Assembly: GCA_964354105.1 (NCBI GenBank) | Contig: CAYGXM010000004.1 | Span: 5,193-69,192, forward strand | DNA: 64,000 bases | Reading direction: 5' to 3' | DNA from: Candidatus Woesearchaeota archaeon | Lineage (GTDB): Archaea > Nanobdellota > Nanobdellia > UBA10117 | In this document: one piece after another, positions 11,258 through 64,000 of the stretch | Position numbering within the stretch: position 1 is the stretch's first letter | Layout: each line of letters opens with the position of its first letter | Notes under the pieces: model-generated | The model's database searches: none | Seen by the model: only the letters and a program-made list of their open reading frames with translations | What the model was told of the DNA's origin: nothing | Program-made: the position numbers and the translations under genes

Positions 11258-11572
11258 ATGGCATTGAGAAAACCGACTGCACAGGATAAAATCGCATTCT
11301 TTACCCGCAGAATCCTTGGGGAGAAAGGAAAAGCAATGATTTGGCGCTTTGCGGATGAAGCTGAATTTAACATCGAATACACCTGCCCGCATTGTGGCAA
11401 GCCAGGAGAAAAGAGGATGTTGCTTGAGAGAAAGAAAGTATCTATAACAAACCCGACAACGGGCAAGAGAAAATCAAAGAAAGCATACTTAATTCCTTGC
11501 GAATCCTGCAAGCAAGACATTGTAATAGAGCAGTGGGCAAAAGCAGGCCCAGGCAAGAAGAAGGCAGCATAA
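11258..11572 (+). CDS. small zinc-ribbon protein
   Basis: 104 aa with 'CPHCG' and 'CESC' pairs. Its stop abuts the next ATG (TAAATG). Preferred over the antisense ORF 11218-11607. Confidence 0.5.
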   Translation: MALRKPTAQDKIAFFTRRILGEKGKAMIWRFADEAEFNIEYTCPHCGKPGEKRMLLERKKVSITNPTTGKRKSKKAYLIPCESCKQDIVIEQWAKAGPGKKKAA

Positions 11573-33796: not shown

Positions 33797-34501
33797 TTAG
33801 CAAGTCTCGTAGTAGCCTTTTGCTGGCTTGTGGAAGTTTATTCGCAGCCAGCTGCCGACGTAATATTTGAGTGCAATCCTGTGGAAGCTTTTCCTGAATC
33901 TCCTGTCTGAGGTAGGCATTTTCAGCCTGTAGTCAAACTTCATTTTCCCGGAATGGCCTGCCCTGAGGTAGACCCTTATCCTGCTTCCAATCTCATAATC
34001 TTCCAAAAACCTGCCCTGGAAATGGAATTTCTTCAAAACCTCTTTTCTAAAAGCCATATGTGCGCCCCAAAGGTTATGATGGCCAAAAGCTGCAAAAATG
34101 GCAGGGAAAAGTTCAGCCCAAAGCTTGAACGCCATTCTTAGTTTTAGCCTGCTTTTGCCGCTTAAAATTAGAGGGCCTGACAGGGCTAAAAGCTTAGGGT
34201 CTGTGAAATGTTTTGCAATTCTAGCTGTCCAGTCCTTATTAGGAAGATTATCTGCATCGCAGTATGCAATTATATCCCCTGTGCTATGCCTCCAGCCGAT
34301 ATTTCTAGCCGCCGTTAAGCCTGTTCCGTCATCCTTAGCTATGACATCTGCATACCTTTTTGCTATCCTTACAGTATCGTCTGTTGACTTGCCGTAAACA
34401 ACGACGATTTCAGGCCTCAGGACTTGTTTTTTAAGTGCAGAGAGGCATTTTTTCAGATAGAAAGCATCGTTTTTAGCGCACACCACGACGCTGATTTTCA
34501 T
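33797..34501 (-). CDS. family 2 glycosyltransferase
   Basis: 'ISVVVCAKNDAFYLKKCLSAL', 'DADN' (DxD). Directly downstream of, and co-directional with, the giant surface-protein genes. Confidence 0.78.
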   Translation of the reverse strand: MKISVVVCAKNDAFYLKKCLSALKKQVLRPEIVVVYGKSTDDTVRIAKRYADVIAKDDGTGLTAARNIGWRHSTGDIIAYCDADNLPNKDWTARIAKHFTDPKLLALSGPLILSGKSRLKLRMAFKLWAELFPAIFAAFGHHNLWGAHMAFRKEVLKKFHFQGRFLEDYEIGSRIRVYLRAGHSGKMKFDYRLKMPTSDRRFRKSFHRIALKYYVGSWLRINFHKPAKGYYETC

Positions 34502-39979: not shown

Positions 39980-39980
39980 C

Positions 39981-42900: not shown

Positions 42901-45900
42901 CCGCAGTCATCACACAACTGTTGGCCTTCTGATGTGCTTACACAAGTAGCAGTATACAAATTAGTTCCATCAGGGTCTGTACAAGTTGGTGCTGGAGGCG
43001 TGCAAGAAGTGCAGTCCGTGCAAGTGTAGCCAGATGGACATCCATTTGGTGTTGCACTTTGGTCGCAGACTTCTCCTGCATCCACTATTTGATTGCCGCA
43101 TACTGGCGGAGGAGGAGCCTGTTCAGTTACTTGGATTTGGAAAGTTATGGAATCAGTTGCTACAGTTGCTCCATCAAAAGGTGTTGGAGGTTCTGTGAAT
43201 GTGATAGCAGGGACTATTGGTGCACAAATAGGGTTTTGTGCACAGTCAGGGTCTGCGCAGTCAATTAATTGATCAGCATCATTATCTATCAAGTCATTAC
43301 ACATAAATTCTACCGGCGGTACTTGCTGGAAGCTGTTGTTGTGTATGGAATTGACTTCTCCGCATATGCCTTGTGAATAATCGCATACAAACGGAGTTAC
43401 TACGTAATAAACTGTGTTGTACGTAACCGTATTATCAATAGATTCTGAAAGCACAATTCCTGTGTTGACATTATTCAAGATGTTGTTTGTAATGTCTGTT
43501 GCATCTGTACTATCAAGGGTTATGCCGACATCTGCATAATTTATGACGTTGTCTTCAATCGGGTCGGTCCCGCTGACACTGCCATATACTGCGTATGTTG
43601 TATAAGAGATGGCATTGCCTTTCTTGGTTGCGCCGTATGTATTATATGAATAAATTCCATAATAGCTGTTTGTTATATTGTTATAGTCGATTTTAATATT
43701 GTTCGAGGACATTGCAGAAATGCCTTTGCCGTCGCTAATACCAAGTCCATTGAGCTCTACATCGTTGAACATGACTGAAGCATTGTCTGAATAAGTTCCC
43801 AAGTTGATTCCAGTCCAATTGTTGTAAGCAATGGTGTTGCTAATTATGTTATTATAATCTGAGTCAAGCGTCGTAATGCCTGATTGCGAATTGTATTCGA
43901 TATAATTATTAATTAAATTATTCCCGGGGCTGCTATTAAGGTATATGCCGTCCTGGCTATTCTGGACGACTGAGTTGCCTATTAAGTTTGTTAGCCCACC
44001 ATTTTCCAGGATAATTCCATTGTTCTTGTTATTCTCTGCATGGTTGTTTGTTATATTCGCATTGGCAATGCTATAATTAGCGGCAGCTCCAAAATAAAGC
44101 CCGCTCAAGTTATTATTGTTAAACACATTGTTGTCTATTGTGCCAGTTATACCTCCGGTTACGCCACTAAAGGAAGCGCCGTATTGATTGTTGTAGCTGA
44201 CAATGTTATTTGTAAAGTTGCCCATCCATGGTGTTGCATTAAAGCCGCTTAGGCCATTGTAATTAATATTATTATTGCTGATGTTGTCCAGGAAGCCCTT
44301 GAATATATATACACCATAGCCTTTGTTATAGCTTGCATTGTTGTTCAATAAAATGTTTTGAGGGTGCGGATATGCGAGGTAATAGATGTCAAAGTTTATG
44401 CCTGATTGATTGTTATAAACTGCTGTATTGTCCTGAAGATAGCAATTGGTATATGCAGAGCGATAACAATATATTCCATTCTTATTGTTGTACTCTACAA
44501 TATTATTGGAGAGGTATGTGTTAAGTAAACTACCAGTGTCTGTGCCCGCCCAGTTAAAGAAAATGCCGTGCTCTCCGTTGTTAAATGCGCTATTGCCTGT
44601 AAAGATATTATTAACGCTTTTCGCGGTTACGAAGCCGCTGAGGCCGTTATAGCTGGCATTGTTGTTATTCAAAGTATTATTATTAGAGCCAGCTGATAAG
44701 ATATAGCTAGGAGTGTTAGGATATATGATTATACCCCAGTAATTATACAGCCATATTCCATACTGTGCATTGTTGTTGAATGTGTTGAATGCTATGTTGC
44801 TATACGAAACATTAATGAGCAATGCTCCTTGCTGGTAATTGTTGCTGAATGTATTGTAAAGAATTTGATCGGATGTGCTGTCATTGATGGCCAGGCCATA
44901 CAGTTGTGCATTGCGGGCATCATTAAACGATATATTGTTGTTCGAAGAGATGTCGTACGACCCTATGCCTATCCGGCCATATCTGATGGTATTATTGTAG
45001 ATTGTGCTTGAGCTGACTTTTGAGAGCGCAAGGCCATAATCACCATAAGGACTCGCATCTATGTAATTGCCTGCCACATAATCATTCACGCCGTTAAGCA
45101 CAATGCCGTGGCCGTAGCCTCCACTTCTTGTAATACCTAATACTTTGTTATTTGTTATGCTGCTGCCGTTTATGTTTGACGCATAAATGCCATGAGCATT
45201 TTGGCCTGCTGCATTAGCTTTGAATGTATTGTTGTTAAACGTACAGGCATTTGCATTTAGAACGTATATGCCATGCTCCATGCCTGTGATAAAGCAATTA
45301 TTGACAGTGATATTTGCCCTGTTAGCTATGTTTACGCCTTTGTCTGCATAAATGTAATCTTTGTTGATTGCATAACCCACGCAGTCAAGCTCTACATTAT
45401 CTGCCTGTATATCAATGCAACTGCCGCTGCCAGTCGCAGTCAGGTTATTTGCCAAAATATAATAGTCCGGCACTGTTATTATGCCGCAGCTGTATAAGGG
45501 CTTGCCGCATCTCTTGCTGCAAGTCACTGAGTTGCTGTCGAGGTCCTGCAGGTTCTTGCAGGTATTGTCTCCTGAATTGCCATTTGAGTCTGCTGATAAT
45601 AAAATATCTTTAACTATATTCTTGCAGGCAGTGTTGTTTAAAATTACGCCGTTATCGCTGTTGCTGAATTTAATGCCATAATACCATTCTGTTACAGCGC
45701 AGTTCTTTATGGTGACATTATTTCTGTTTTCTGCATAAACTCCTATCGAGTCGAGTTTGGTAATGCCGTCAATCATATAGTTCTGGCAGTTCAGTTCGAC
45801 ATTGCTAGTCTGTACATTTATGCAAATGTCTGCTGTTGAATTAGCTATATTATTAGCCAGCACGTAACTGCCTGGCATAGTTATGTTCTTGCAGCCTGTT

Positions 45901-48900
45901 ATTGCTGATAATGCAACATAAACAGTCCTCTGCTCCGTATAGCCCATATTTCCTGCGGTGTCATCAGCCTTTACCTTGAACGTGTATGTGCCGTCTGCCA
46001 GGCTTGTTTTTGACTTCTCGCAGACCACGGAGCTTGTTCCTGCTCCTGAAGTTATTGTCATTGACTCGTCGATGCCATTCCAGGTTAAAGTGCATGAAGA
46101 AATGGCCAGCCTTGCATCATTTGCAGTTACATTTACAGCTATTGTTGCAGTTCTTATTATTGCGCCGTCTGAAGGTGTTGGAGGTACAAATGAAACTGTC
46201 GGGATTGTTGTATCTGCTGTAACAGTTATTGTCCTCTGTTCCGTATAGCCTATATTCCCTGAATTATCATTAGCCTTTGCCTTGAATGTGTACGTACCTG
46301 GTAACAGGCCTGTCTTTGTCTTCCCACACATAACGTGGCTTGTTCCATCGCCCATAGTTATTGGCAACGGCTCTTCTATGCCATTCCATATCAAAGTGCA
46401 TGAAGTTACTATTCCTGAATTTATTGCATCAACATTTATGTCAATTGTTGCCGGGGGCAGGAAGTCGGCGCCATTTGCAGGTGTAGGCGGTGTTACAAAC
46501 GTAACAATTGGGGCTGTTACATCCGGACAGCTTCCTATTGTGCAAGTCAACCCAGTATTTGCATCGTCATCCTGCTTATTTGTACAGGTATTATCTCCTG
46601 AATTGCCTGTTGAATCTGAAGTAAGATAAATATCTTTATTTTTATTTGCGCAGGCAGTGTTGCTTGTTAGCGTGTTGCTATCAGCATTATCGATAACGAT
46701 GCCACGATCCGTATTATTAGTTGCTGTATTTCCTGTTAGTATGTTATTAGTAGTAGATTGGATTCGAATGCCCTCCTGGCGGTTGTTGTTAGCTGTGTTG
46801 TTTGTTAATCTACTGTTAGCAGAGTCGTAGATGTAAATACCAAACAAATTACTGTCAGCTGTATTGTTGATTATTTTGCCATTTGGAGAAAACTGAAAAT
46901 ATATTCCACGAGTAAAGTCTGTAATTATGCAATTCCTTACTGTTACGCCTGTTTTACCATTCGCAAAAATACCATGCTCCCCGCCCGCAATGCTTGCTAT
47001 GGTATGACCATTGCAGTCCAAAACAACACCATCAGCTTTTATGTTAAAGCAAACCGAACCTGCGCCGCTACCACTATACGCAATATCATTTTGCAGGCTA
47101 TATGTGCCTGGTGTTGTTATATTCATGCAGTTTGTTATTAGCACTGGAGCTGTTACTAATGGAGCATAATCTCCGCCAACAGTTATTCCTCCTAGAGAAG
47201 TGAAAGGCAAGTCTGTATCGCCGATTAAGTCGCCATTCAAGTCTTCGCCACCATAGGTTGGCCAGTAATTGCCTGCAATATATGGCCCGCCGATTATATT
47301 CGGGCCTGATGTCTTTGTCGTGTTCCATGAATTTGTGGCTGTGCTTGTCACGCCGTACATGAATTTATTATCATAAATCGAATTGCCGCTTCCACCGCCG
47401 AGTTTTAATTGCGTGTTGAAAATATTATGCGCTATTGTACTGCTTGATGGGTTGAACCACTGCGTGCCGTAGATCGTGCCGCAGTTCGTTATATTGTTGC
47501 GCTCGAAAATTACATTTGAACCACTGCCTTCCAAGCAGCGGCCGTCACTATCTACTACATTATTTCTTACTATGGTATTGCTCGGAATATAAATATCCTG
47601 GCCTCCATTGCCATCATTAGGGTTGCTGTTATGGAAGTAATTGTCCAATATCATATTGCCAGTTCCAAGATTATTTATGCCTGCATAGCTGTGGTATTCG
47701 AAAGTATTGCCCACAATGACGCTTCCGGTCATGCCGCCTGCTTCTATGGCAGTGCCGCCAATAGCGCCACCTATGGCCGCGCCGTTGTTGTAGAAATAGT
47801 TGCTGTAAATTGAAATATAAGTGCCATAAACTGACATGCCTGCAGCCTCAGCGCCACCTTCCGTAGTTATTCTTTGCCCATTATTGGATATATTATTTCC
47901 ACGTACTACAATACCTGTGCTTGGATAGCCGCCTTCAAAGCCTATCGCAATACCAAGTCCGCTATTATTCCAGATTGTATTTGTTTCGAAGAAATTATTT
48001 GACCCGCCGTTTTCCAGGGTAATTCCTCGTACACCATTCGAATTAAACGTATTATTAGTTACATTATTATTCGAAGCTGCTGTAAGATATATGCCATGCT
48101 GATTGTTACTTGCAACGTTGTTGATTATGGTATTGTTGTTTGAATAAATCGCAATGCCATAATAATTATTGCTTGCGGTATTCGAAGTTAAGGTATTTAG
48201 ATTGCAATTTGCATCAATGGTAAATCCGTTGTCTGAATTTATGGCTGTGTTTCCTGTCAAGACATTGCCGCTGCTGATTAATACAGGATAGATTTGTCCA
48301 TAAATGTTGAAGCCGCCATTATTTGCAGTGTTCTGTATCAGCATATTATTGGAGCTGTTGAAGAGGCCGAAAGAGTTGGCTGTGTTTCCTGTCAATGTGT
48401 TGTGTGATGAATAAGCTAACTCCATGCCAACATCATTATCAGCTGTTACTAGATTGTTTGTTATGGTAAGATAAATGCTGTTGTAAGCTGAAAAACCAAC
48501 AAAATTGCTGCTAAACGTATTATTTATTATTTCACTGCTAGCACTATTGGCGTTGATATACATGCCATATCTCCAGTCAGAAGTGACGCAGTTCTTTATT
48601 GTTATGTACTGGCGCCCGTCTGCAACAATGCCTTTTGCAGCCCCCGAATCAATACCATCAATAGTGTGGCCCCCGCAATCAAGGGTAACATCATTTGCCC
48701 GTATATCAATGCAAGAAGAAGTTACAGGGGAATTGATTATGTTCTGTGTTAATCTATACACTCCAGGTGACGTGATATTTTGGCAGCCAGAGATTGGCGT
48801 CGCACAGATTCTTGAGCAGGTTAAGAGGTATTCACCAGATTCGTCATTCAAAGTTGTACAAATATTATCGCCTGAGTTGCCATATGAACCGCCAAAAATG

Positions 48901-51425
48901 TAAATATCCCAGCCATTGCCGCAGGCTGTGTTGTTTACTAATATATTATTAGAACCCACGACAAGGTATATGCCCGCATTATTATTATTGAATGTGTTTC
49001 CATACAGAGCGTTGTAGTCTGAGTTGGAGGCGAAGTAGATGCCATCATTCGAATTGTTGCTGGCTGTGTTGTTTCTTAAATCGTTGTGCGAGCTTGTCTT
49101 GAGATGGATGCCATGATTTAAATTGTTATTAAATGTGTTTCCTGCCACCCAATTATTAGAGCTGGAGTTGAGCAAGATGCCATACTGATTATTGCTGGCT
49201 GTGTTGGAGGATATATTATTATAGGTACCAGAGTGGAGGGAGACGCCATAGTAAAAGTTGTTTAATATGCAATTTTTGACTGTTGCCCCGCCATAATTTA
49301 CCAGCTTGACGCCGCTATAAGGGCTTCCTATATGAGCGCCGGTTATTGTATGGCCAGTGCAGTCTATTGTAGTGTCATTTGCAGCTATTGTGAAGCAATC
49401 TCCTGGTACACCAGTTATATTATTTGTTAAAGCGTAATAGCCCCCTTCGGTGTTTAAAGTCTGGCAGTCAGAGATTAAAGTTGCTGTGATAGGCACGCAA
49501 ATCAATTGCGGACTGTAGCTTAACAGCTTTTCACATCTGTTAATTCCCGTATTATTCCCATATAGTGTATCTGAGATATCATGACCATAACCTCCGTAGG
49601 CCAGGTTATTGTTTAGTACATTGTTATATGAGCTTTCGAGCCAGATGTTGCCGTTCGAATTGTTAGTGACTGTGTTACCTGTCAACAAATTATTATCGCT
49701 GGAGTCGAGCATGACGCCGTATCTGCCGTTGCTGACTATATTATTAATAATACTATTACTGCTGGAATCCATGCCCATGTAGAGGCCGTAAGTAAAGTTG
49801 TATACGCCGCAATTTTTGATTGTCGCGCCACTAACAGCGTTTCCCACCTTGATGCCTTCAGTATAGTAGTCACCACCTGTTATTGAATGGCCCATGCAGT
49901 CTAGTGTGATATCATTTGCGGATATTGTGAAACAATCTCCTGTTATGCCAGTTATGTCATTCATTAAAGTGTAATAGGCTCCTGTAGTGTTTAAATCCTG
50001 GCAATTGGTTAGGTTAAAAGGATTGTAAGGGGTTAAGGTGAGGGCAGTTCTAGTTTCTGAATGGCCTATGTTGCCTGCAGCATCATCGGCGTATGCAGTA
50101 TAGGTGTGCGTGCCCAAAGACAAGCTAGTTGTGTAATCGCAGGTTACAGAATTTCCAGTGCCTATTTTTGTCATTGAATAAGTTGAACCATCGATGTCGA
50201 GCCAGCAGGAATTTATTGATGAATTGGCGTCTACTGCAGAAACATTAACAGTTATTGTATATGGAGGCAATACAAATGTACCATTAGCAGGCGTAGGGTC
50301 TATAAAATATACTGTAGGAATAATCATGTCAGAGCTATTGTAATAAGGCGTGACATCTGCTACAGTCAGGCCGCTGAGCTTTACAGGATCCGGTGCTCCG
50401 CCCCAATAATTGTAAGTCAGGTCATTGTTTGTGCTGCCGGTGCTTTGGGCATTGTATAATACATTGTCGTATATGAGGTTTTGCTTTGCACTATTATTAT
50501 AAGAATTGTTAAGTGTAAGGCCATATTGATTGTACTGTATCCTATTTGTGATAATATTATTATACCTGCTTTCGTTAAAATAAATGCCCCGGGTATTATT
50601 TTGAATTGTGTTATCAGTAATGTTAGAGGCGTCTACACCCATAAATTTGATTCCGTATGCCCCAAACTTTATCGTGTTTCCTGCTATGCTGAAATCATGA
50701 ACCGGGTGAACAAATTCGTGGTCGATAAGAATATTTTCATTGGTGGCTCCGCCTAATATGTCATTGTAGTCTATTATGACGTATGAAGAATCATATGTAT
50801 AAATGTTTTTACCGTTATTGGCAAAGGTATTATGGGTTATACTGCTATTGGCGCTAAAAAGACTTTGAAAGAAAACGCCTTGCTGGCTCCAAGAAATTGT
50901 GTTATCAGAGATTCTTATATTTGACGCTCCGTATGCGTGAATACCATCATACCACTTTGTTATGTTGCAGTTTTTAATTTCGATATTTTGTATTTCAGTT
51001 GTAAGTGGCCATATGAGTATCGCAACTTGCTGCGGATCGGCTGTATCCAATCTATATCTGCCTTCGATTGCAAATCCATTACAATCGAAAGTAACATCGC
51101 TTGCTTGAATAGTAATGCAATAGCCAGCTGAGCTGTTAAGTATGTTCCCACTTAACGAATAAGAACCGGAAGAAGAAATTGTTTGGCAGCTTGAAACTTC
51201 TACACCGCCGCCGCCAGGCAAGCCGCCGATGCCTAAACTTTGCGGCGCAGGTTCTGGAGGCTGCATCTGTGGCTGCTCAGGAGCAGAATTTTCCGGTGCA
51301 TTTGCATCCGGCAGATCAACGCTGAAAAGCCCTGTGAGATTTGCACTTGACGCTACTACAACTAGCGCACCTACTGCAACTAGCACTAGGACTAGAATAC
51401 TAACTTGGCCTTGCCTCCTACACAT
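39981..51425 (-). CDS. 3814-aa surface protein with nine parallel-beta-helix (PbH1/NosD-like) modules and C-terminal 'X' domain
   Basis: N-terminal anchor or signal 'VSILVLVLVAVGALVVVASSA'. Nine caps of the form 'C..I...G.Y.L..NI....C..I.A..V.LDC.GH.I.G', each followed by runs of approximately 22-aa 'NNTA.NN..GI.L..S..N.L' repeats. Interspersed Ig-like and Cys-rich modules. X domain in the last 284 aa. Confidence 0.85.
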   Translation of the reverse strand: MCRRQGQVSILVLVLVAVGALVVVASSANLTGLFSVDLPDANAPENSAPEQPQMQPPEPAPQSLGIGGLPGGGGVEVSSCQTISSSGSYSLSGNILNSSAGYCITIQASDVTFDCNGFAIEGRYRLDTADPQQVAILIWPLTTEIQNIEIKNCNITKWYDGIHAYGASNIRISDNTISWSQQGVFFQSLFSANSSITHNTFANNGKNIYTYDSSYVIIDYNDILGGATNENILIDHEFVHPVHDFSIAGNTIKFGAYGIKFMGVDASNITDNTIQNNTRGIYFNESRYNNIITNRIQYNQYGLTLNNSYNNSAKQNLIYDNVLYNAQSTGSTNNDLTYNYWGGAPDPVKLSGLTVADVTPYYNSSDMIIPTVYFIDPTPANGTFVLPPYTITVNVSAVDANSSINSCWLDIDGSTYSMTKIGTGNSVTCDYTTSLSLGTHTYTAYADDAAGNIGHSETRTALTLTPYNPFNLTNCQDLNTTGAYYTLMNDITGITGDCFTISANDITLDCMGHSITGGDYYTEGIKVGNAVSGATIKNCGVYNFTYGLYMGMDSSSNSIINNIVSNGRYGVMLDSSDNNLLTGNTVTNNSNGNIWLESSYNNVLNNNLAYGGYGHDISDTLYGNNTGINRCEKLLSYSPQLICVPITATLISDCQTLNTEGGYYALTNNITGVPGDCFTIAANDTTIDCTGHTITGAHIGSPYSGVKLVNYGGATVKNCILNNFYYGVSLHSGTYNNISSNTASNNQYGILLNSSSNNWVAGNTFNNNLNHGIHLKTSSHNDLRNNTASNNSNDGIYFASNSDYNALYGNTFNNNNAGIYLVVGSNNILVNNTACGNGWDIYIFGGSYGNSGDNICTTLNDESGEYLLTCSRICATPISGCQNITSPGVYRLTQNIINSPVTSSCIDIRANDVTLDCGGHTIDGIDSGAAKGIVADGRQYITIKNCVTSDWRYGMYINANSASSEIINNTFSSNFVGFSAYNSIYLTITNNLVTADNDVGMELAYSSHNTLTGNTANSFGLFNSSNNMLIQNTANNGGFNIYGQIYPVLISSGNVLTGNTAINSDNGFTIDANCNLNTLTSNTASNNYYGIAIYSNNNTIINNVASNNQHGIYLTAASNNNVTNNTFNSNGVRGITLENGGSNNFFETNTIWNNSGLGIAIGFEGGYPSTGIVVRGNNISNNGQRITTEGGAEAAGMSVYGTYISIYSNYFYNNGAAIGGAIGGTAIEAGGMTGSVIVGNTFEYHSYAGINNLGTGNMILDNYFHNSNPNDGNGGQDIYIPSNTIVRNNVVDSDGRCLEGSGSNVIFERNNITNCGTIYGTQWFNPSSSTIAHNIFNTQLKLGGGSGNSIYDNKFMYGVTSTATNSWNTTKTSGPNIIGGPYIAGNYWPTYGGEDLNGDLIGDTDLPFTSLGGITVGGDYAPLVTAPVLITNCMNITTPGTYSLQNDIAYSGSGAGSVCFNIKADGVVLDCNGHTIASIAGGEHGIFANGKTGVTVRNCIITDFTRGIYFQFSPNGKIINNTADSNLFGIYIYDSANSRLTNNTANNNRQEGIRIQSTTNNILTGNTATNNTDRGIVIDNADSNTLTSNTACANKNKDIYLTSDSTGNSGDNTCTNKQDDDANTGLTCTIGSCPDVTAPIVTFVTPPTPANGADFLPPATIDINVDAINSGIVTSCTLIWNGIEEPLPITMGDGTSHVMCGKTKTGLLPGTYTFKAKANDNSGNIGYTEQRTITVTADTTIPTVSFVPPTPSDGAIIRTATIAVNVTANDARLAISSCTLTWNGIDESMTITSGAGTSSVVCEKSKTSLADGTYTFKVKADDTAGNMGYTEQRTVYVALSAITGCKNITMPGSYVLANNIANSTADICINVQTSNVELNCQNYMIDGITKLDSIGVYAENRNNVTIKNCAVTEWYYGIKFSNSDNGVILNNTACKNIVKDILLSADSNGNSGDNTCKNLQDLDSNSVTCSKRCGKPLYSCGIITVPDYYILANNLTATGSGSCIDIQADNVELDCVGYAINKDYIYADKGVNIANRANITVNNCFITGMEHGIYVLNANACTFNNNTFKANAAGQNAHGIYASNINGSSITNNKVLGITRSGGYGHGIVLNGVNDYVAGNYIDASPYGDYGLALSKVSSSTIYNNTIRYGRIGIGSYDISSNNNISFNDARNAQLYGLAINDSTSDQILYNTFSNNYQQGALLINVSYSNIAFNTFNNNAQYGIWLYNYWGIIIYPNTPSYILSAGSNNNTLNNNNASYNGLSGFVTAKSVNNIFTGNSAFNNGEHGIFFNWAGTDTGSLLNTYLSNNIVEYNNKNGIYCYRSAYTNCYLQDNTAVYNNQSGINFDIYYLAYPHPQNILLNNNASYNKGYGVYIFKGFLDNISNNNINYNGLSGFNATPWMGNFTNNIVSYNNQYGASFSGVTGGITGTIDNNVFNNNNLSGLYFGAAANYSIANANITNNHAENNKNNGIILENGGLTNLIGNSVVQNSQDGIYLNSSPGNNLINNYIEYNSQSGITTLDSDYNNIISNTIAYNNWTGINLGTYSDNASVMFNDVELNGLGISDGKGISAMSSNNIKIDYNNITNSYYGIYSYNTYGATKKGNAISYTTYAVYGSVSGTDPIEDNVINYADVGITLDSTDATDITNNILNNVNTGIVLSESIDNTVTYNTVYYVVTPFVCDYSQGICGEVNSIHNNSFQQVPPVEFMCNDLIDNDADQLIDCADPDCAQNPICAPIVPAITFTEPPTPFDGATVATDSITFQIQVTEQAPPPPVCGNQIVDAGEVCDQSATPNGCPSGYTCTDCTSCTPPAPTCTDPDGTNLYTATCVSTSEGQQLCDDCGLNYMGVSATGPSPIREAICSGSTAVYYDTYCPKGYVCDEGACVGGQGISTSGSATKTFGASSITSATLYFDSNPYTMPCTQIDPTTADCTVTINNIANGWHSYYATATDSYSRTGMSATRTVNVNVQAAFCGNEIIEAGELCDPPGGTNGCFNGNSFSPSYEPNLVCNADCTACITPTACTDTDGGINYIVKGKTCIDGDCMADGCIVDGNIDLREYYCSGGSRLYQDILCEVEFGPGWTCLNGACVAPQPTEIPVYGCQSLDQAGATYILQNNIDDGYDQCFSFYASNIILDCGGHTIAGTGYGSGNGIYAESVNGITVKNCIITNFDNGIQFNSVQNSNLINNTVHDNWQAGIFLYYNSNDNLVSNNHVCNNEYDNNIVIEGSASNIGVNICNGPSGDTGDNPQLTCTPCPVPEICNNQIDDDGDQLIDCADSDCAQDPYCLPIIITECQSLDQAGKTYQLQTDITQPSREPCITILADNVVLDCNDQSLIGPGVSTGWTGIMAQSRNNVLIKNCVIRDWGTAISLRHISNSRLTNNNIYDNQQGIRFDQSSSYNTIDGNTISSNVGGGLSIGMQSGLNSIYNNNISYNLDGIIVMAGSNNNNLTDNIACANRNNDIFLTQDSTGNSGSDNTCDYLRDDDANTGLTCSQSCPPVPEVCNNNKDDDRDDLIDCADSDCAQDPVCAVTIPSRDATNLPAAVLIAPFYTTSAGDTTIILTNTGTITEYVKAYFISADGCFVSDMSFTLTRNQPYPPFLVSDIAPGTTGYMIAYTSDMNGNALGHNTLIGSVEFKEEDTGHYGSYNMIGFRSLNGLAGPTGSLRFDGVYLEKWPNTLLMPGYLASDTDSDNNLALMSPLTNLADGSSFTPVTNVFTAYSESGSGQSIAQTLNSCYLYTPLNSISSAFSRNDLGSETGTIKIQASGTTPAILGAYVHYDVNERSLPNAYSGVNVLAGTCTGGCPTVIINYPGEEA
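39986..39990 (-). promoter_or_regulatory. GGAGG Shine-Dalgarno inside the last codons of the 3814-aa ORF, 6 nt before the ATG of the 1808-aa ORF
   Basis: The minus strand reads ...GGAGAGGAGGCTTAAGATGAAAACC. The TAA stop (39981-83) and the ATG (39977-79) are separated by 1 nt. Confidence 0.55.
45925..46530 (-). repeat. tandem duplication of an approximately 100-aa Ig-like domain inside the 3814-aa ORF
   Basis: 'TAPIVTFVTPPTPANGADF...SCTLIWNGIEE...GTYTFKAKANDNSGNIGYTEQRTITV' is followed by 'TIPTVSFVPPTPSDGAII...SCTLTWNGIDE...GTYTFKVKADDTAGNMGYTEQRTVYV'. Confidence 0.8.
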
Positions 51426-57331: not shown

Positions 57332-59779
57332 TTATTTCTTCTTTGCTTTTCTTCTGGCAGGCTTTTTCTTTTCCTTGCTTACTTCATCTAAGATGTCTTG
57401 TGCCTCTGGTTTCTTCTCTTCTTTTACTTCTGTATCTTCCTCGAGGAATTCATTGAACTTCTTTGCAAAATCTTTCTTTCTTAACACATAACTCAAGATT
57501 GCTACAATCACTATTACAACTATGATGAAAAGCCAGTTAGGAACATAGTATGTGCTCTCCATTAGGAAATCTTTTGCAAATCCCAGAGAGGGCATTGAAA
57601 CTGATGGTATGGAAAGCTTTGGCAGATTTAATTTTGGTATCTTGCTTTCTTTTCCTGTTTCTTCAATTTCTTCTTCAGTTTCGTTTCCTGATAGTTTTGC
57701 TGCAGCTTCTGGCGATAAGAATTGTGAAATGTTCTCTGGAGCTTCTGTAAGGTTTTCTGTTAAGTTCTGCTCTTCTGTCTGATTTTCTTCTATAGTTATG
57801 TTTTCTTCAGTTGTGGCGTTTTCTTCTGGGAAAACTGTCTCGTTAGTTTTCCATTCTGTCTCGTTGGTTTCATTTAGGATTATCTCTTCTGTTTGGTTTT
57901 CTTCTTCAGCTACTGTGATGTTCTCCTCAGTAGTCTCGTTTCCAGTTTCATTAACTTCTGCTGCTTCTTCTTTTTCAGCTCCGAATTTTGGCAGTGAAAT
58001 TGATGGAATATTCAGTTTTGGAGCTTCCAATTTCGGCATTTGGATTGATTTAATTTTCTCAGGGATTGATTTGAAGAATGCAACAATCCTGTCCTTAGCC
58101 GCGATTAATTTTTCCCGCGGAGTTTCTGCTGTTATTTTTTCTTCAGCTTGCTGTTCTTCAGCAGCCCCAAGTACTATATCAAAAGTTGTTGTTGATGAAA
58201 CAGTGCCGTCAGCTAATCTTGCAGACACAGTTACTTTATAGGAATTTTCAGCAGTTTGTTCTGGAACTGCTACATATGCATAAATTGTCTTTGCAGATTT
58301 CCCGTTTAATTCCAGGGATGCGGGATTCAGCTGTACAAATTGCGCTCCTGTTCCGCTTACATCTAAGTTGTAAGTTGAATTTTCAAGGCCCTTGTTTTCG
58401 ATTACAACTGGAACAACTGCAGGCTCTCCTGCTGCAACATGAACTTTTGTTATCGCTGCTGTTGCCTGAACGCCGTAGCAATCAGTCATAGGCGCTATGT
58501 TTAATTTTAATTCAGAAGTTGCAGATGCCTTGCTTGTGCCCTGCGCTTCTGCCCTTATTACAATAGTCTTAGTTTCTGCAGGAGAATCTTTCGGCTCTAA
58601 TAGAAGATTGAATTCAGTTGAATTTCCAGGTTCCAGCTCTACAAAATCTTTATCCAGGGATGCAAAGTCAGCTCCTGTCACAGTTACTGAATATTTTTCT
58701 GTAAACTCTCCATTATTTACTAAAGAAACTGCATATACTTTGGACGTGTGCGGGCATATGGTATCTTCTACAGATGCCAATTCCAGGGATATGTCATGAC
58801 AGCTTCTTACATTTGCCAGGATTGTCTGCTCCTGTGATTCTCCAGTCTTGGGGTTTGTTATGACATTAATCTTGAAATCGCCGGCCACCCCGTAGCCTGG
58901 GAATAAAACTACATTTGTAAATTTTGCTTGTCCTGCAGGTATTTCCAGATTTTTATTTTCAATTGTTGACCACACAGGGCCTTCAACATTTATTTCATAA
59001 GAATTGTCAACAGAACCTCTGTTCTCTACGGCAAGAGGAATCTTTGCTTCTGAATTTTCGCAGAAGCTGACATAATTGGTATCCGCAGCTGCAGAAAAGT
59101 CATAGCAGCCTTTTGATGTTAATTTAAGATCCGCAGATGCCAATGCTCTTGAGTTCTGCGATGCAGCTGTAATTGTCAGTGCGAAGTTTCCGGTTTGGTC
59201 AGCAGGCGGCGTGCTGTATGCTATAATATTTTTGACCTGGCCAGCTTCCAATCTTACAAGCTCTTCTGACAATGTTGTCCATTTTGCTGGCACGCCAGAT
59301 ACTGATAGCGCGAAATTTTCTGTATACTTTCCTGTATTTTGTAACGTCAGGGGATAAAGTGCTTCAGTTGCAGAGCAGACTTCTGCTGTAGAAGCATTCG
59401 TTATTAAAGAAGCAGAATGGCAGTCTTTCACAGTTACCTTTGCAGTTGTTGTTTCCGTGCCTGCCAAAGAGCTCAAAGTGATTTTTAAAGAATAAATTCC
59501 TGGATTTGCAGAAATGCTCGGGGTTACATAGACATAAACTGTTTCAGATTCGCCTTTTTTTAGATTAAAGCCTGCAGGGGCAGCAATTGCCCACTTTCCT
59601 GCAGAATCAGACATGCTTACGGTATAAGAATTTTCATAGTTTTCATTGTTTGCTACAGAAAAGATGAAAACTGACGTGTCTGTAGCGCAAGTTTCAGTGC
59701 CATTTTCGTTCAACGTCAGTGCGTTTACACCTGCAAATGCAAACAGAAAAACTAGCAAGATTATTATCTTTTTTACCAT
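57332..59779 (-). CDS. S-layer-like / surface protein with about 5 beta-sandwich repeats, sequon-rich acidic stalk and TM anchor
   Basis: Signal peptide 'MVKKIIILLVFLFAFAGVNA' (ATG 59779; the track start 59785 is GTG). Approximately 100-aa repeats with '..L.L.N.G...E.Y.V.V.G' strands, each opening with Cys. Sequon-rich region at aa 611-702. TM 'WLFIIVVIVIVAILSYVL'. Lys/Glu-rich tail. Confidence 0.7.
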   Translation of the reverse strand: MVKKIIILLVFLFAFAGVNALTLNENGTETCATDTSVFIFSVANNENYENSYTVSMSDSAGKWAIAAPAGFNLKKGESETVYVYVTPSISANPGIYSLKITLSSLAGTETTTAKVTVKDCHSASLITNASTAEVCSATEALYPLTLQNTGKYTENFALSVSGVPAKWTTLSEELVRLEAGQVKNIIAYSTPPADQTGNFALTITAASQNSRALASADLKLTSKGCYDFSAAADTNYVSFCENSEAKIPLAVENRGSVDNSYEINVEGPVWSTIENKNLEIPAGQAKFTNVVLFPGYGVAGDFKINVITNPKTGESQEQTILANVRSCHDISLELASVEDTICPHTSKVYAVSLVNNGEFTEKYSVTVTGADFASLDKDFVELEPGNSTEFNLLLEPKDSPAETKTIVIRAEAQGTSKASATSELKLNIAPMTDCYGVQATAAITKVHVAAGEPAVVPVVIENKGLENSTYNLDVSGTGAQFVQLNPASLELNGKSAKTIYAYVAVPEQTAENSYKVTVSARLADGTVSSTTTFDIVLGAAEEQQAEEKITAETPREKLIAAKDRIVAFFKSIPEKIKSIQMPKLEAPKLNIPSISLPKFGAEKEEAAEVNETGNETTEENITVAEEENQTEEIILNETNETEWKTNETVFPEENATTEENITIEENQTEEQNLTENLTEAPENISQFLSPEAAAKLSGNETEEEIEETGKESKIPKLNLPKLSIPSVSMPSLGFAKDFLMESTYYVPNWLFIIVVIVIVAILSYVLRKKDFAKKFNEFLEEDTEVKEEKKPEAQDILDEVSKEKKKPARRKAKKK

Positions 59780-59887
59780 GTGCACCTCTATTTACTACTT
59801 CTCACGGACATCAGCATATAAGCATTTCTTTACTGGAATGTATATATTAAAAGAAACAGGATTTTCCCAACTTTTTGAATCTCCAAA

Positions 59888-62176
59888 TTATTTCTTTTTT
59901 ATCCTTCTATGCAAATGTTTGCTTTCCTGCCAGATTACATAAATAATTGAAGCAATTAGCATAATAACTACCAAAGTAACCAAAGATCCACCTTGCCTGT
60001 TGAACATAGCTGTCGGGCTTGTATATCTGATTGCTTCTGCGCAGTCAGCAGAACAGCTTATAGCAGTCTCGCCATTTGCACAGGTTCCATCACCGCAGTA
60101 AGTATAAATTGCAGGTGTTGGAGCAGCTGGCAAAGATTCCTGCAATGGTGTCAGCTTTATTCTGGCGCCATCAGGCAACAATATCTGCAGCAATTCAACT
60201 CTCAAATCATTCAAATCATTTCCATTTGTATCAATGTCTTTTGACTCGCCCTCTCTTAAGGTTAAAGTAATTGGCGATGAATAAATCTCAATAGTCGCGT
60301 AGCCGGATGTTACTGTTTTTAATTTTGCTGAGTGGCATTCGCCTTGAGATACAAAATTAATTGTGCCACCAACAAATAGGTTAAATGTTCCTCCTCCAAA
60401 TGCTTCTGTAATCGTTGTGGCTGCTGAAGGAGCCCCTCTTAGTGTCGGCGGGCCTGGCACTTGTATAGCAAAAAACCATGTGCCATTTCTGCCCATATTT
60501 CCAAGAGTATCATTTGCATAAACTGTGAAGTTATGCAATGTTCTGTCAAGCAATGTCTTTGTTGCTTTGCATAACACAGACTTTCCAGAACCATCTTTAG
60601 TCATTGTTTCATTTACGCCGTCAAACTCCAAGATGCAGACATTTACATTAGACGTACTGTCTGTTACATTAGCGTGCAGCTCCAATGTCTTTGATGTCTG
60701 TACGGAATTATTCTCCGGAGAAGGCGGGATTAGAATTCTTATTGTTGGGGGTCTTGCATCATAAACTGTAAAGTCTACTCCAGATGCATTATTTAATGAG
60801 CCATCTGAACAGTTTACATTCCAAATGTAATCGCCAACTAAATCTGAACGGTATATGCTTGAAAGGGGAATGAACCAAGGCGTATTATTTTGCAAGGATA
60901 AATTAAAGCCCGTTGAGGCGCGACCATTAAGATAAAATGCAAAATGGCAATCAAGCGGCGAAGTTTGGTCATCTGTTACTGTAACGTTGAGTATGATGTT
61001 TTGTGCATTGCCTAATTGCGAGCCGTTTGCAGGCGAGGTTATGTTTATCTGAGGAGGCAGATTACTAATGCAGTCACCCGTATCAAATGCGTCGCAAACT
61101 AGGTTGCAAGCAAGTGTTCCGCCAGTATAACCTTGCGTTATGCAAGTCTCTCCTGCTAAATCAGTCCCATCGCAGACTTCACTTGGCTGGTTAACAATAT
61201 TATCACCACAGAGCGGGCTAAGTGGTTCTGCTGAGAATGGCAAATATACGTTAAAAGTATTAATAGGTCTGTGAGTTTCGCGCACTGAAATAAAGGAATC
61301 TGCATCTGTTGTCGTATTAGGATTAAAATTAGTAAAGATGCCTCCAATTAAATTGCCAAATGACGTTCCTACTGGTGCGCCAGATCTTTTGGCAATATTT
61401 GCCCATATAAGATCACCCGACCGTGCAAACGTATCGTTAATAAAATACTTATCAACGCAATTTCCCAATAGGTCTTTTGAAAACATTAGTTCATCTTGAT
61501 TAGTTAAACGTAAAGTTAGGTCGTTCTTGACACCGTTCTGGCTTGCATTTATTATGTCTGTTGCAGGCCAGATCGCATCTGTTGCTATTGATGAGCTAAA
61601 ATAAGTAATTGGGACATTTCCATAGGAAGAAGCTACAGAAAAAATACTTGCAACATAAACTTGCTGGGGCGCTCCAGGAGTGTAATCTGTCCCTAATTTA
61701 AGCTGACCATTGTTGGAAATATTGCCTGAAAAGTTTGCTTGGTATATTAGAGGCATGTACGAACCCTTTGCGCCATCTGCTGCCTTAAACCAAGCAGTGC
61801 CGAGAAGATAATTCCAATTCATAAGATATCCGCCCATATTAACTGCTGCGCAAATTAAGTATCCTTGTTTGTCTGGTGCAAGGTCGCTCGTGTTTAAAGG
61901 TATTGGAGCAAACCCTGGCAATACCACATCTGTATAATTTTGGGCACATTGTGAATCATTTTCATATATAAGAGTGCATCTCACAATAACATTAGAATTG
62001 TAAGTATTAAGCAGTACAATTTTTGTGTTCTCTGCTGACAAATTGCTTGAGTTGCTTGCAAATACAGGAAAGACCAAAGCGCTGCCTGGCCGCGTGTATG
62101 GCAGGGCGCTTGCGATAGGAATAGCTACGAGAAACAATACAAAGAATGCCAGTAAAAATTTACAAGGGTACGCCAT
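59888..62176 (-). CDS. surface protein with N-terminal 'Y' domain, Ig-like domains and C-terminal TM anchor
   Basis: The start is taken at 'MAYPCKFLLAFFVLFLVAIPIASA' (ATG 62176; the track ORF extends to 62290). Y domain 61235-62104, paralogous to the 1808-aa N-terminus. C-terminal 'CGDGTCANGE...SCSADC' plus TM 'LVTLVVIMLIASIIYVIW'. Confidence 0.75.
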   Translation of the reverse strand: MAYPCKFLLAFFVLFLVAIPIASALPYTRPGSALVFPVFASNSSNLSAENTKIVLLNTYNSNVIVRCTLIYENDSQCAQNYTDVVLPGFAPIPLNTSDLAPDKQGYLICAAVNMGGYLMNWNYLLGTAWFKAADGAKGSYMPLIYQANFSGNISNNGQLKLGTDYTPGAPQQVYVASIFSVASSYGNVPITYFSSSIATDAIWPATDIINASQNGVKNDLTLRLTNQDELMFSKDLLGNCVDKYFINDTFARSGDLIWANIAKRSGAPVGTSFGNLIGGIFTNFNPNTTTDADSFISVRETHRPINTFNVYLPFSAEPLSPLCGDNIVNQPSEVCDGTDLAGETCITQGYTGGTLACNLVCDAFDTGDCISNLPPQINITSPANGSQLGNAQNIILNVTVTDDQTSPLDCHFAFYLNGRASTGFNLSLQNNTPWFIPLSSIYRSDLVGDYIWNVNCSDGSLNNASGVDFTVYDARPPTIRILIPPSPENNSVQTSKTLELHANVTDSTSNVNVCILEFDGVNETMTKDGSGKSVLCKATKTLLDRTLHNFTVYANDTLGNMGRNGTWFFAIQVPGPPTLRGAPSAATTITEAFGGGTFNLFVGGTINFVSQGECHSAKLKTVTSGYATIEIYSSPITLTLREGESKDIDTNGNDLNDLRVELLQILLPDGARIKLTPLQESLPAAPTPAIYTYCGDGTCANGETAISCSADCAEAIRYTSPTAMFNRQGGSLVTLVVIMLIASIIYVIWQESKHLHRRIKKK

Positions 62177-63230
62177 AGGTAATATTAAAAGATGCGCAGC
62201 TTGTCTGGCATTTAGCAGCTGCCAATTGAACTCCGCTGTAGGCATTTGCATCAGTGCCCTCATTTGAATCATAGCGCATATATAATCCAATAATCGGACA
62301 GTTTGGACAATCGCCGCCGACAGGACTTATGAGAGCGTCGCCAAATTCTGTGCCAGTTATGTTGCGTGAAAATATCGACTCTGCGGGGTTATCTGTGTCT
62401 ATTCTGTTAAGAGAAGATTCAAAATAACAAGAACTCATTGGTTCAGATGTGGAGAAATTTTGTGCATAGCTGTTATAGACTAATATTTGATTTGTAAATC
62501 CTGTAAATGTTCCTGCCCAAACATCAGATGGCGGAGATACAAATATTATTCTATTTGAATCATCATCTGCAGTTAGGAATTGGGGCATCATATAGTTTGG
62601 CCATTGCTCAAGATTCACGCCATCAAATGTTAAAGTTCCTGCTGGACCGGTATTTCCATTTAGCGATCGAAAGCCAGCCATGTTGTAACCGCCATAATGG
62701 CCTGTTGATGCCTTGAATTCCACACTTCCAAGCAGAGTGTTATGGCCAATTGCATTTTCATCTCCGTCAATTGTAAAGGCCAACATCCATCCCCTGCCAC
62801 TGCTAAGGCCGGGGTTTGCAGGTGTAAAAGAAAATATTTGATCGCGGCTGAGCACTATAGCGCAATCCATCATTTTTACGCAAGAATCGTTTGTAAAGAA
62901 AAACAATTTTACGGTTTCACTACTGCGGCCAGTATTTGTTATGGTAAAGCGGGTATTTTCAGTTTCAGGAACAGTATCATCATATACCCAAAATGGCGCG
63001 ATAAGAACTGCTGCTGGAAGATTTGTTGCATCCGATGGAACTTCTGAGATTTGAAAATTTTGTGGCTGGGCTTGAAATGCTAGTTGTTCAATCGGCATTT
63101 GCTCTTCAACTGGCTGAATGTTAAAGCTTGAAAATCCTGACAAAGATGTCAGGGCTGCCAAAACAAGGACTGATACAGCTACAACTAACGCTATTGATAA
63201 TGCACTTGCCTGGCCAGACTGCCCCTTCAT
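62160..63230 (-). CDS. 356-aa membrane-anchored or secreted protein consisting essentially of the 'X' domain
   Basis: N-terminal TM 'ALSIALVVAVSVLVLAALTSL'. Residues approximately 66-356 are paralogous to the last 284 aa of the 3814-aa protein. 17-nt overlap with the downstream Y-gene ATG. Confidence 0.7.
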   Translation of the reverse strand: MKGQSGQASALSIALVVAVSVLVLAALTSLSGFSSFNIQPVEEQMPIEQLAFQAQPQNFQISEVPSDATNLPAAVLIAPFWVYDDTVPETENTRFTITNTGRSSETVKLFFFTNDSCVKMMDCAIVLSRDQIFSFTPANPGLSSGRGWMLAFTIDGDENAIGHNTLLGSVEFKASTGHYGGYNMAGFRSLNGNTGPAGTLTFDGVNLEQWPNYMMPQFLTADDDSNRIIFVSPPSDVWAGTFTGFTNQILVYNSYAQNFSTSEPMSSCYFESSLNRIDTDNPAESIFSRNITGTEFGDALISPVGGDCPNCPIIGLYMRYDSNEGTDANAYSGVQLAAAKCQTSCASFNITYGVPL

Positions 63231-63286
63231 GAGTGAGATTAAACTGTTTTGGCTTAAAAATGTTTGTAGAAGAGAATCTCTCAGAA

Positions 63287-64000
63287 TTACTTCCGAAGTT
63301 CTTTCTTTAATCTTGCCAGTCTCCTGGAAAGCTCCTTTGACTCCCTTTCCAGAGATTTATGGCCTTTTTCTTTTTTGACCCTGAAATCCCTTGCGCCTTT
63401 TTTGACTTTGAACTCCTTTATTGGAGGTGGCAGTTTTATCGGTTTTACTGCTTTTACTTTCCTCTTTTCTGGCCTTGGAATTTCTTTAATTGCAGATACA
63501 GCCATTGCGGGTTTTCTCTTGGCCAGCGGTGCCCTCAGCTGATAACGCAGGTACACTTTATGCCATGCCACATAAGCTATTGCAGCTAAAAGCATAATTA
63601 TCAAGAATGTTATGATTGAACCGCTTTGTTTTGTGAACAATGCCAGTGGAGCTGCATAGGCAATTGTTTCTTTGCAGTCATCAGGGCAGTTCTCGGCATT
63701 TTCAGAATTCTCGCAGACGCCGTCTCCGCATACAGATATTTTTATAGGCGCAGGAGCCGCTGGGAGCCTTTCTGGCAAGACAGTAAACTTGATTACTGCG
63801 CCATTAGGCGGGATTATTTCCATTAATTCAACGCGCAAATCATTTATGTCGTTTCCAGTTACGTCAACTTCTTTTACTTCACCTTTCCCCAAAGTCAATG
63901 TGAGAGGAGACATTATATCAATCGTGACAAAACCAGATGTCACTGTTGTAAGCTTGATTTTATGGACCTCCCCTATTATTACAAGTTCTATAGTGTCTCC
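63287..64000 (-). CDS. C-terminal part of a further surface protein (paralog of the 59888-62176 product), 5'-truncated at window edge
   Basis: The frame is open to nt 64000 (GDTIELVIIGEVHKIKLTTV...). The track 'start' at 63943 is an internal GTG. The module 'GNDINDLRVELMEIIPPNGAVIKF...CGDGVCENSE...CPDDC' plus TM and Lys-rich tail matches the C-terminus of the 800-aa protein. Confidence 0.65.
   Translation of the reverse strand, partial: GDTIELVIIGEVHKIKLTTVTSGFVTIDIMSPLTLTLGKGEVKEVDVTGNDINDLRVELMEIIPPNGAVIKFTVLPERLPAAPAPIKISVCGDGVCENSENAENCPDDCKETIAYAAPLALFTKQSGSIITFLIIMLLAAIAYVAWHKVYLRYQLRAPLAKRKPAMAVSAIKEIPRPEKRKVKAVKPIKLPPPIKEFKVKKGARDFRVKKEKGHKSLERESKELSRRLARLKKELRK

Follow-up and report, generated by a model that had tools for sequence, protein, structure and literature searches.

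Secreted proteins with multiple copies of the ASRAH domain are known, and the ASRT-like fold was predicted to bind sugars (PMC2739507). Large envelope and adhesin proteins usually join beta-helix repeats of the NosD/CASH families (PF05048/PF13229) with immunoglobulin (Ig)-like domains, a signal or anchor segment and a transmembrane helix. Class III signal peptides have their processing site before the hydrophobic H-domain, with G, A or S at position -1, and the substrates of EppA carry KGQV/KGQL sites in which Gln at +1 is obligatory (PMC4371748). The locus described here is comparable to each of these in part. It lies in a stretch of 64,000 nucleotides (nt), in the following called the window, from contig CAYGXM010000004.1 of a Candidatus Woesearchaeota archaeon (assembly GCA_964354105.1, positions 5,193 to 69,192 of the forward strand). 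On the minus strand, two overlapping genes were found, the first encoding a protein (X2) that ends in a domain called X and the second a protein (Y2) that starts with a head domain called Y. Judged from its sequence, the region 59888-63230 encodes archaeal cell-surface proteins in a conserved two-gene module, of which it is the second and compact copy in the window. The two products may form a two-chain surface structure joined by docking of X to Y. This docking, which we infer from sequence comparisons and structure models, is a tentative reading with a probability of roughly 0.45.

The X2 gene (62160..63230, minus strand, as are all features of both cassettes described here) is an ATG-to-stop open reading frame (ORF) of 356 amino acids (aa). 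It consists of an N-terminal anchor (MKGQSGQASALSIALVVAVSVLVLAALTSL, 63141..63230), in which a Gly-Gln motif stands ahead of a hydrophobic helix in the style of class III (prepilin-like) signal peptides, a linker of ~35 aa and the X domain (62163..63041, residues ~64-356) with two predicted beta-sandwiches and conserved Cys. A first-pass annotation of the window had described a 356-aa protein with an N-terminal hydrophobic anchor at this place. All the coordinates and sequences that it gave were correct, and the AlphaFold model of X2 contains a helix at residues 7-30. The Y2 gene (59888..62176) encodes 762 aa. Its signal peptide is followed by the Y head (61223..62104, residues ~25-318), a Cys-rich segment, Ig-like domains and a C-terminal module (59891..60370) made up of a beta-sandwich, an LPAAPTP linker, a CGDGxC...C..DC motif, a transmembrane helix and a basic tail; the Pfam scan gave a Big_7 match in this protein. 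Y2 contains 23 N-glycosylation sequons and 20 Cys. The number of sequons per 100 aa is 3.0 in Y2 and 1.8 in the giant gene of the other cassette, compared to 0-0.7 in the cytoplasmic proteins of the window, and the Cys content ranges between 2 and 4.7% in these surface proteins. The signal peptide and anchors, the conserved Cys and the high sequon density speak for an extracellular location, as predicted from the sequence.

The two genes overlap by 17 nt (ATGGCGTACCCTTGTAA, 62160..62176), with the X2 stop codon TAA at 62160-62162 and the Y2 ATG at 62176. The ORF list gives a TTG at 62290 as the start of Y2; the alignment of Y2 with three other Y proteins points to the ATG at 62176. All four aligned proteins open with M-(K/A)-x-K and a hydrophobic signal peptide, followed by an A-x-P/F motif and then "RPGS.L.FP.F". 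The statement of the first-pass annotation that the X stop overlaps the ATG of the Y gene was thus borne out, and translational coupling across the overlap is likely. Ahead of the Y2 ATG, the genes overlap and no Shine-Dalgarno-like motif is found. Between X2 and the preceding partial ORF, here called P3, lies a spacer of 56 nt (63231..63286). It holds a TATA-like TTTTTAA (63254-63260, minus strand) 24-30 nt upstream of the X2 ATG, which suggests a possible own promoter and a leaderless mRNA for X2.

The X2/Y2 junction is not an assembly artefact, because an independent assembly (L001, a Logan contig from run ERR4334736) is 100% identical to window positions 58443-64000 over 5558 nt. This base-for-base agreement bears on the explanation that one gene was broken into X2 and Y2 by a frameshift or through faulty assembly, which would make the cassette meaningless. 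The parent gene would have resembled P0034, an existing single-chain relative described below, and such an origin would fit the overlap of the X2 and Y2 ORFs in different frames as well as a possible frameshift in a related gene on contig L004. However, X2 ends with the complete family C-terminal motif C...C...N-I-T-Y, Y2 and the other aligned Y genes start with their own signal peptide right past the X stop, and a split gene would not hold two domain copies. We therefore regard this explanation as hardly credible.

Both proteins have counterparts in cassette 1 of the window. Its giant X-type gene (39981..51425) encodes 3814 aa and consists of an MCRRQGQVSIL anchor, ~3400 aa of beta-helix and Ig domains, an acidic double-disulfide repeat and, as its tail, the X1 domain (~39984-40835). 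Matches to Pfam NosD (E 3e-156) and to NCBIfam NF033662 were found in this gene. The Y1 gene (34553..39979, 1808 aa) starts 1 nt past the stop of the giant gene, and its head (~38966-39919) is similar to that of Y2. X2 was found to be 44% identical to the last 300 residues of the 3814-aa protein over 297 aa (E 9e-66), and residues 19-337 of Y2 are 43% identical to residues 21-338 of Y1 over 328 aa (E 3e-68). In sequence terms these similarities, and that of the partial ORF P3 to Y2 given below, are far beyond chance, and the second cassette proposed in the first-pass annotation is genuine. The same annotation had described a tandem array of cassettes. Two cassettes are indeed present; they lie ~8.5 kb apart with S-layer-like and housekeeping genes between them, so that the term is overstated and only partly apt.

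The sequence GGAGAGGAGG (39980-40000, minus strand) shortly upstream of Y1 is strongly Shine-Dalgarno-like. It lies inside the last codons of the giant gene and is followed by TAA, 1 nt and the Y1 ATG. The acidic double-disulfide repeat, which matches NF033662 (E 5e-7; CxDxxDDDxDxLIDCADxDC), is located at 40836-40930 (minus strand), directly before X1. The same repeat recurs within the giant gene and was also found on L002, a Joint Genome Institute (JGI) metagenome contig with an X/Y cassette, both directly before the free X (~3100-3200) and after the Y head. The repeat may serve to link modules where they join.

X and the Y head are also similar to each other. The comparison of X2 with the Y2 head by BLASTP resulted in 25% identity over 114 aa (E 2e-6), and the X/Y cross-comparisons over four cassettes gave E values from 2e-6 down to 4e-12. 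With a profile of 30 diverse X-type sequences, the four Y heads reached 62-80 bits, among them the Y2 head with 79.6 bits. In the AlphaFold model of X2 (mean predicted local distance difference test score (pLDDT) 80.3, 166 residues at >=90), residues 72-351 form two beta-sandwiches. The Y2 head was modelled with the same strand-rich two-part layout, with pLDDT >90 in the first sandwich and 66-91 in the second; the full-length Y2 model is good for the head alone, and residues 337-597 have a pLDDT <50. For X and the Y head alike, the top match in the PDB was 1nc7 (TM1070), aligned on the first sandwich with a Foldseek probability of 1.00, a target-normalised template modelling (TM) score of 0.68-0.73 and a root-mean-square deviation of 3.1-3.8 Å. 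By sequence and model, X and the Y head are diverged paralogues of one predicted domain of ~290 residues with two beta-sandwiches. From this homology it follows that the cassette sets two paralogous domain copies on the facing ends of consecutive gene products.

The ASRT/ASRAH protein TM1070 (Pfam DUF1362) is the sole solved structure that matches X and the Y head with good overlap, and the likeness is at fold level only. The first sandwich of both has the eight-stranded TM1070 topology, and a nearly invariant Asn (N99 in X2, ...ITN) closes the second strand, as described for ASRAH. In contrast, X has no sequence match to the Pfam model or to any chain in the PDB, and the SHEshChhN signature with its pocket His and Cys is absent: the X consensus at this place is NT-x-I-x-I-T-N-T, in which the terminal Asn alone is kept. 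The Trp of strand 1 is not conserved in X. Further differences are the second, distinct sandwich of ~150 aa, the conserved disulfide Cys and the position at the termini of giant proteins. The conserved positions of the domain are structural in type, with N164 and G168 being invariant, next to L, Y, T-N, Q, P, G-W and Cys.

Other matches in the PDB (arrestin, Spy0128 pilin, ClfB and GH2 sandwiches) had TM scores of <=0.27 and were rejected as generic two-sandwich noise, and the viral structure library gave nothing above a TM score of 0.23. Among the archaeal and bacterial members scanned, no Pfam match (E<=0.1) and no NCBIfam model covered the domain, and the PDB sequence search with the 30-sequence profile returned no chain at E<=10. 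In the literature on giant surface proteins of DPANN archaea, nothing was found that describes the X/Y domain. As judged by these sequence searches, the terminal domain is uncatalogued, with no family entry and no solved relative detectable by sequence. Several functions were considered and dropped: a C-terminal sorting signal, since Y has the domain at its N-terminus; an intramolecular chaperone that helps beta-helices to fold, since X2 and Y2 contain no beta-helix; and an enzyme, since the conserved residues are only N, G, L, P, W and Cys, none of catalytic type.

For the size of the X family, 1.84 billion cluster representatives were scanned with HMMER using a four-sequence X profile. This resulted in 798 proteins at E<=1e-3, 548 at <=1e-10 and 56 at <=1e-30. 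The library carries no taxonomy; judged from their sequences, the members of the domain family look mostly bacterial. Among the best 150 of the 798 proteins, qualifying domain copies were found 118 times at the very C-terminal end of a larger protein, 14 times at the N-terminus and 11 times internally, and a further 23 copies occur in proteins of <420 aa. The partner domains include DUF11 repeats, He_PIG, LTD and NosD beta-helix. Four bacterial proteins (P0010, P0015, P0018 and P0021) carry one copy at each end, and tandem copies were found in P0013, P0017, P0026 and P0133. In the all-against-all comparison, copies from different proteins group by position, C-terminal with C-terminal and N-terminal with N-terminal ones, which suggests that the split into an N-type and a C-type is old and that the position is conserved. 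The best bacterial matches were C copies for 2 of the 4 archaeal X domains and N copies for 3 of the 4 archaeal Y heads, at low scores of 57-102 bits. Many bacterial-looking members (e.g., P0040, P0054, P0065, P0122 and P0143) open with M-R-T-(S/T)-H-T ahead of an N-terminal hydrophobic segment, an N-terminal signature that we did not recognise.

These data bear on the main rival of the docking reading, according to which X and the Y head are independent lectin-like tip modules, co-expressed and duplicated as a unit and making no contact with each other. Each would bind a glycan or another ligand, either on a host cell or on the envelope of the organism itself. The match of both first sandwiches to TM1070, a member of the ASRT family with its predicted sugar binding, is consistent with this. 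The same holds for the adhesin-like placement of the domain at the end furthest from the membrane anchor in X- and Y-type proteins, for the bacterial relatives, which include secreted stand-alone forms of ~330 aa, and for the glycosyltransferase gene of family GT2 that follows Y1. However, no Pfam match to ASRT or to a carbohydrate-binding module was obtained at E<=0.1, and the ASRT pocket signature of His and Cys is not visible, X having T-I-T-N-T-G at that strand. Independent tips would also leave unexplained the constant gene order, the placement on a C-terminal and an N-terminal end, the distinct N- and C-type lineages and the single-chain form. For these reasons the rival appears somewhat unlikely.

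The order of X followed by Y was found in 5 of 5 loci, namely twice in the window and once each in L002, L005 and L006, with either a 17-nt overlap or a gap of 1-7 nt. The overlap is that of window cassette 2, while the gap is 1 nt in window cassette 1 and in L002 (stop 4048, start 4050), 4 nt in L005 and 7 nt in L006. On L002, a free X gene (384 aa from the first ATG) is followed after this gap by a Y-headed gene of >2180 aa. L005 mirrors the layout of the window, with a gene for a C-anchored protein, a free X gene (437 aa) and a giant Y gene of >2270 aa. The first ORF of L005 (22-3195) lacks a signal peptide at its beginning and directly follows a stop codon close to the start of the contig.

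X and Y diverged in parallel. The identities of the X and Y domains, respectively, were 44 and 43% between the two window cassettes, 39 and 40% between cassette 1 and L005, and 41 and 40% between cassette 2 and L005. The matched values fit a pair that was duplicated and diverged as one unit. In addition, the free X of L002 and the fused X1 share 90% identity, and across the X/Y junction the DNA of L002 and that of cassette 1 agree to 87%. The claim that X is a unit tied to Y is supported by the adjacency and the parallel divergence. As far as searches show, a pairing of a C-terminal with an N-terminal copy across two coupled genes has not been described.

The archaeal X clade is very sparsely sampled, and databases cover this archaeon poorly. 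A word-indexed protein search gave three relatives, and a single locus came from JGI data. When the Y2 head alone was used, the word-indexed search returned 0 proteins (Y2 itself was missed), and with a four-sequence Y alignment one protein. These low counts are no evidence of rarity, because the search misses long proteins; the HMMER scan is the reliable count. Scans of 185,579 GTDB species genomes with X alignments gave no relative, and X2, Y2, Y1 and the giant protein are each a singleton in a collection of 15 billion proteins.

The N-termini of the X-type proteins were compared next to each other: MKGQSGQASALSIALVV... in X2, MCRRQGQVSILVLVLV... in the giant gene, MRRTGQASALLMVII... in the X of L002, ...MRRGQANIILLVV... 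in P0003, MRRPGQASILSIALVV... in P0004 and MRRGQASILIIVLI... in P0034. In all six, G-Q-(A/V/S)-S stands right before the hydrophobic helix, and the rest of the region diverges. The regions are located at 63141-63230 and 51336-51425 of the window (both minus strand), at 2894-2980 of L002 and at 1539-1620 of L004. The X of L005 has an ordinary signal-anchor without the G-Q motif. The first-pass annotation had set the free X2 with its own anchor apart from the fused X. The anchor is present, and it is of the same type as that of the giant gene, so that it is not distinctive. Since both share this N-terminal design, the difference between a free and a fused X is the absence or presence of a beta-helix/Ig insert of ~3400 aa. 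Because the free X of L002 and the fused X1 are so similar, the insert was gained or lost between close relatives.

The G-Q motif points to a further explanation, in which the X-type proteins are class III substrates that are cleaved after the Gly and built by means of their N-terminal helix into a type IV pilus-like fibre or a bindosome-like array. X, and any beta-helix with it, would thus be exposed on a filament, with Y as membrane partner or receptor. Like archaeal class III proteins (type IV pilins, EppA/PibD substrates and bindosome proteins), the X-type proteins have G-Q ahead of the helix with Gln at +1, and in all six motif-bearing proteins the G-Q motif provides a permitted residue at -1, directly ahead of the hydrophobic domain. 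The conserved K/R..G-Q-(A/V/S)-S of these six proteins agrees with the KGQV/KGQL sites of EppA and with a site of processing ahead of the H-domain (PMC4371748). A charged residue at -2, reported to be critical in archaea, is present in P0003 and P0034 (R-G-Q) and at the first G-Q of X2 (K-G-Q-S). However, it is absent from the giant gene (Q), P0004 (P), the X of L002 (T) and the second G-Q of X2 (S), and thus from the better-placed motif of X2. The motif is lacking altogether in the X of L005. No prepilin peptidase, PilB/PilC-like ATPase or platform gene was found among the scanned ORFs of the 64-kb window, and the X-type proteins are far larger than pilins; to our knowledge, a pilin of 3814 aa would be unprecedented. 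A pilus-type system is therefore improbable, and a prepilin-type processing of X-type proteins, as suggested by the motif, is a lead only.

The relation between X- and Y-type proteins is further illustrated by P0034, a metagenomic protein of 1752 aa. Its residues 2-64 form an X2-like anchor with 37.5% identity to residues 4-63 of X2. In the middle part, one X-like domain (605-881), which has 31% identity to X2, is set between two stretches of beta-helix, and the end is 38% identical to residues 353-761 of Y2, a region that covers the Ig-like domains together with the C-terminal module and transmembrane helix. In L005, the first ORF resembles the rear half of this arrangement. By its sequence, P0034 is a "Rosetta stone" fusion: what is divided between an X-type protein (front) and a Y-type protein (back) can be a single doubly anchored chain, in which the X/Y domain forms the joint. 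On L004 (ENA k141_4274411, 1539-3865), an X2-like anchor with beta-helix (P0004) overlaps an ORF of 409 aa with a Y2-like C-terminal module, which is possibly a frameshifted single gene or a different combination of modules. L004 is flanked upstream by the same gene as L002 and downstream by the same S-layer-like gene as in the window.

Relatives with 80-94% nucleotide identity (L002 and L004 versus the window) thus carry different module combinations between conserved flanking genes. From these comparisons, the locus is best described as a mosaic, fast-changing surface-protein island, whose modules appear to be exchanged between paralogues and strains. The cell-wall-associated island of Haloquadratum walsbyi (PMC4535781) offers a conceptual likeness only, that of variable surface modules. 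Beta-helix repeats dominate the giant X1 gene, P3, P0004, P0006, P0012 and P0034, where they are joined with Ig-like domains, signal or anchor segments and transmembrane helices in the manner usual for large envelope and adhesin proteins. In contrast, X2 and Y2 contain no beta-helix, and the terminal X/Y pair and the two-gene arrangement lie outside the description of the beta-helix families. The components of the locus are accordingly of known kinds, namely giant surface proteins rich in beta-helix and Ig domains and variable surface islands.

In summary of their architecture, an X-type protein has an N-terminal hydrophobic anchor and ends in X, with either nothing between them (X2, L002 and L005) or 3400 aa of beta-helix (giant gene). 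A Y-type protein starts with a cleavable-looking signal peptide and the Y head, continues with a variable set of modules (Cys-rich, Ig or beta-helix) and closes with a transmembrane helix and basic tail. The two are predicted to be oppositely anchored and carry the paralogous domains on their non-anchored ends. In the docking reading, the X and Y genes would be co-transcribed from the TTTTTAA upstream of X2 and translationally coupled. After export, the C-terminal X of the first protein would dock to the N-terminal Y of the second as a heterotypic pair. The N-anchored and the C-anchored chain would thereby be linked into one continuous, doubly anchored surface loop or arch, the size of which would be set by the inserted modules. 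The joined head could possibly bind glycans, because its first sandwich has the ASRT/TM1070-like fold.

Several points weigh against this docking. The contact between X and Y is inferred rather than observed directly, and adjacency and coupling would be equally expected for two co-expressed independent adhesins. P0034 holds one domain copy and not two, which shows that the halves belong together and not that the copies pair, and L004 encodes an anchor-to-anchor protein without an X or Y domain. The signal of co-divergence is weak, as it comes from five cassettes of few related lineages, and the three lineages compared are roughly equidistant.

Upstream of X2, the partial ORF P3 (63287..64000, minus strand) runs off the window as the 3' end of a large beta-helix surface-protein gene, with a Y2-type C-terminal module, a transmembrane helix and a long Lys-rich tail. 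It is 54% identical to residues 603-751 of Y2 over 149 aa (E 3e-54). Common to both are a small beta-sandwich, an LPAAP(A/T)P linker, CGDGxC...C..DC, a transmembrane helix and a basic tail. This module was also found in L004 and P0034. The Y1-Y2 comparison gave no counterpart of it in Y1, of which only a Cys motif of 24 residues matches, weakly. The first-pass annotation had counted P3 as a third family member. The module shared with Y2 was confirmed, and membership was not established, because Y1 lacks the module and it is the N-terminal domain that defines the Y family.

L001 carries P3 for 2701 nt past the window, to at least 1137 aa with the 5' end still open. The added part consists entirely of right-handed beta-helix repeats (Pfam Beta_helix 1e-98, NosD 2e-81), and within these 2.7 kb past position 64000 neither a Y head nor a start is reached. 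A similar gene with a Y head and an X partner is the one on L002, which continues as beta-helix and of which the last 700 nt are 94% identical to the beta-helix of P3 in L001; it lends indirect support to a Y-type start and an X partner for P3. Upstream of this stretch the similarity falls to the repeat level (~67%), and the relation between the two is therefore a mosaic and not a simple orthology. By its sequence, P3 encodes the final part of a further large beta-helix surface protein, one that is equipped with the Y2-type C-terminal anchor module.

Downstream of Y2 lies a gene for an 817-aa envelope protein (57332..59785, minus strand) with Ig-like repeats, an acidic N-x-T-rich region, a transmembrane helix and a Lys-rich tail. 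Pfam matches were found to FixG_C (2e-16) and NPCBM_assoc (7e-7), and the protein has 18 sequons. The term "S-layer-like" used for it is a description of its sequence and not a finding. The GT2 glycosyltransferase gene (33797-34501, minus strand) is located immediately downstream of Y1 on the same strand, and its predicted product could glycosylate the sequon-rich surface proteins.

The window is archaeal. Its genes include those for aEF-1alpha, aEF-2, a tRNA-splicing endonuclease, a metallo-beta-lactamase of the RNase Z-like type and a Fic protein; its G+C content is ~40%. Two genes for the large subunit of ribonucleotide reductase (17965-20157 and 23699-26176, both minus strand) lie 3.5 kb apart, one with an ATP-cone domain and the other with a C-terminal TSCPD domain. 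A free-standing LAGLIDADG-like ORF (Pfam E 2e-6; 2360-3043, plus strand) is located between an AP-endonuclease-like and a polyprenyl synthetase gene. The ORFs of 725, 383, 380, 298 and 208 aa at 5201-7378 (minus strand), 7430-9698 (plus strand) and 10200-12199 (plus strand) gave no Pfam match at E<=1e-3.

A more general proposal, which we regard as doubtful, is that X as C-type and the Y head as N-type form an ancient, dedicated heterotypic clasp that joins separately exported chains end to end. If this were true, the N- and C-type copies on one giant bacterial protein would link subunits head to tail into fibres or would close loops. The archaeal split over two coupled genes would let stalk modules of any size be swapped while the assembly is kept, and the clasp would represent a widespread principle, not recognised so far, by which giant surface proteins of prokaryotes are assembled.

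Should the docking be confirmed, the domain would merit its own family entry and could be used to predict partner proteins in metagenomes. The minimal pair is useful here, as X2 with 356 aa and the Y2 head with ~300 aa are small enough for expression, binding assays and modelling as a complex, unlike the 3814-aa version. Giant surface proteins are poorly understood in small, likely host-dependent archaea and in uncultured bacteria, where they are mostly annotated as repeats. The rule that a C-terminal copy is followed by an N-terminal copy in the next gene makes of such "large adhesin-like proteins" a testable assembly hypothesis.

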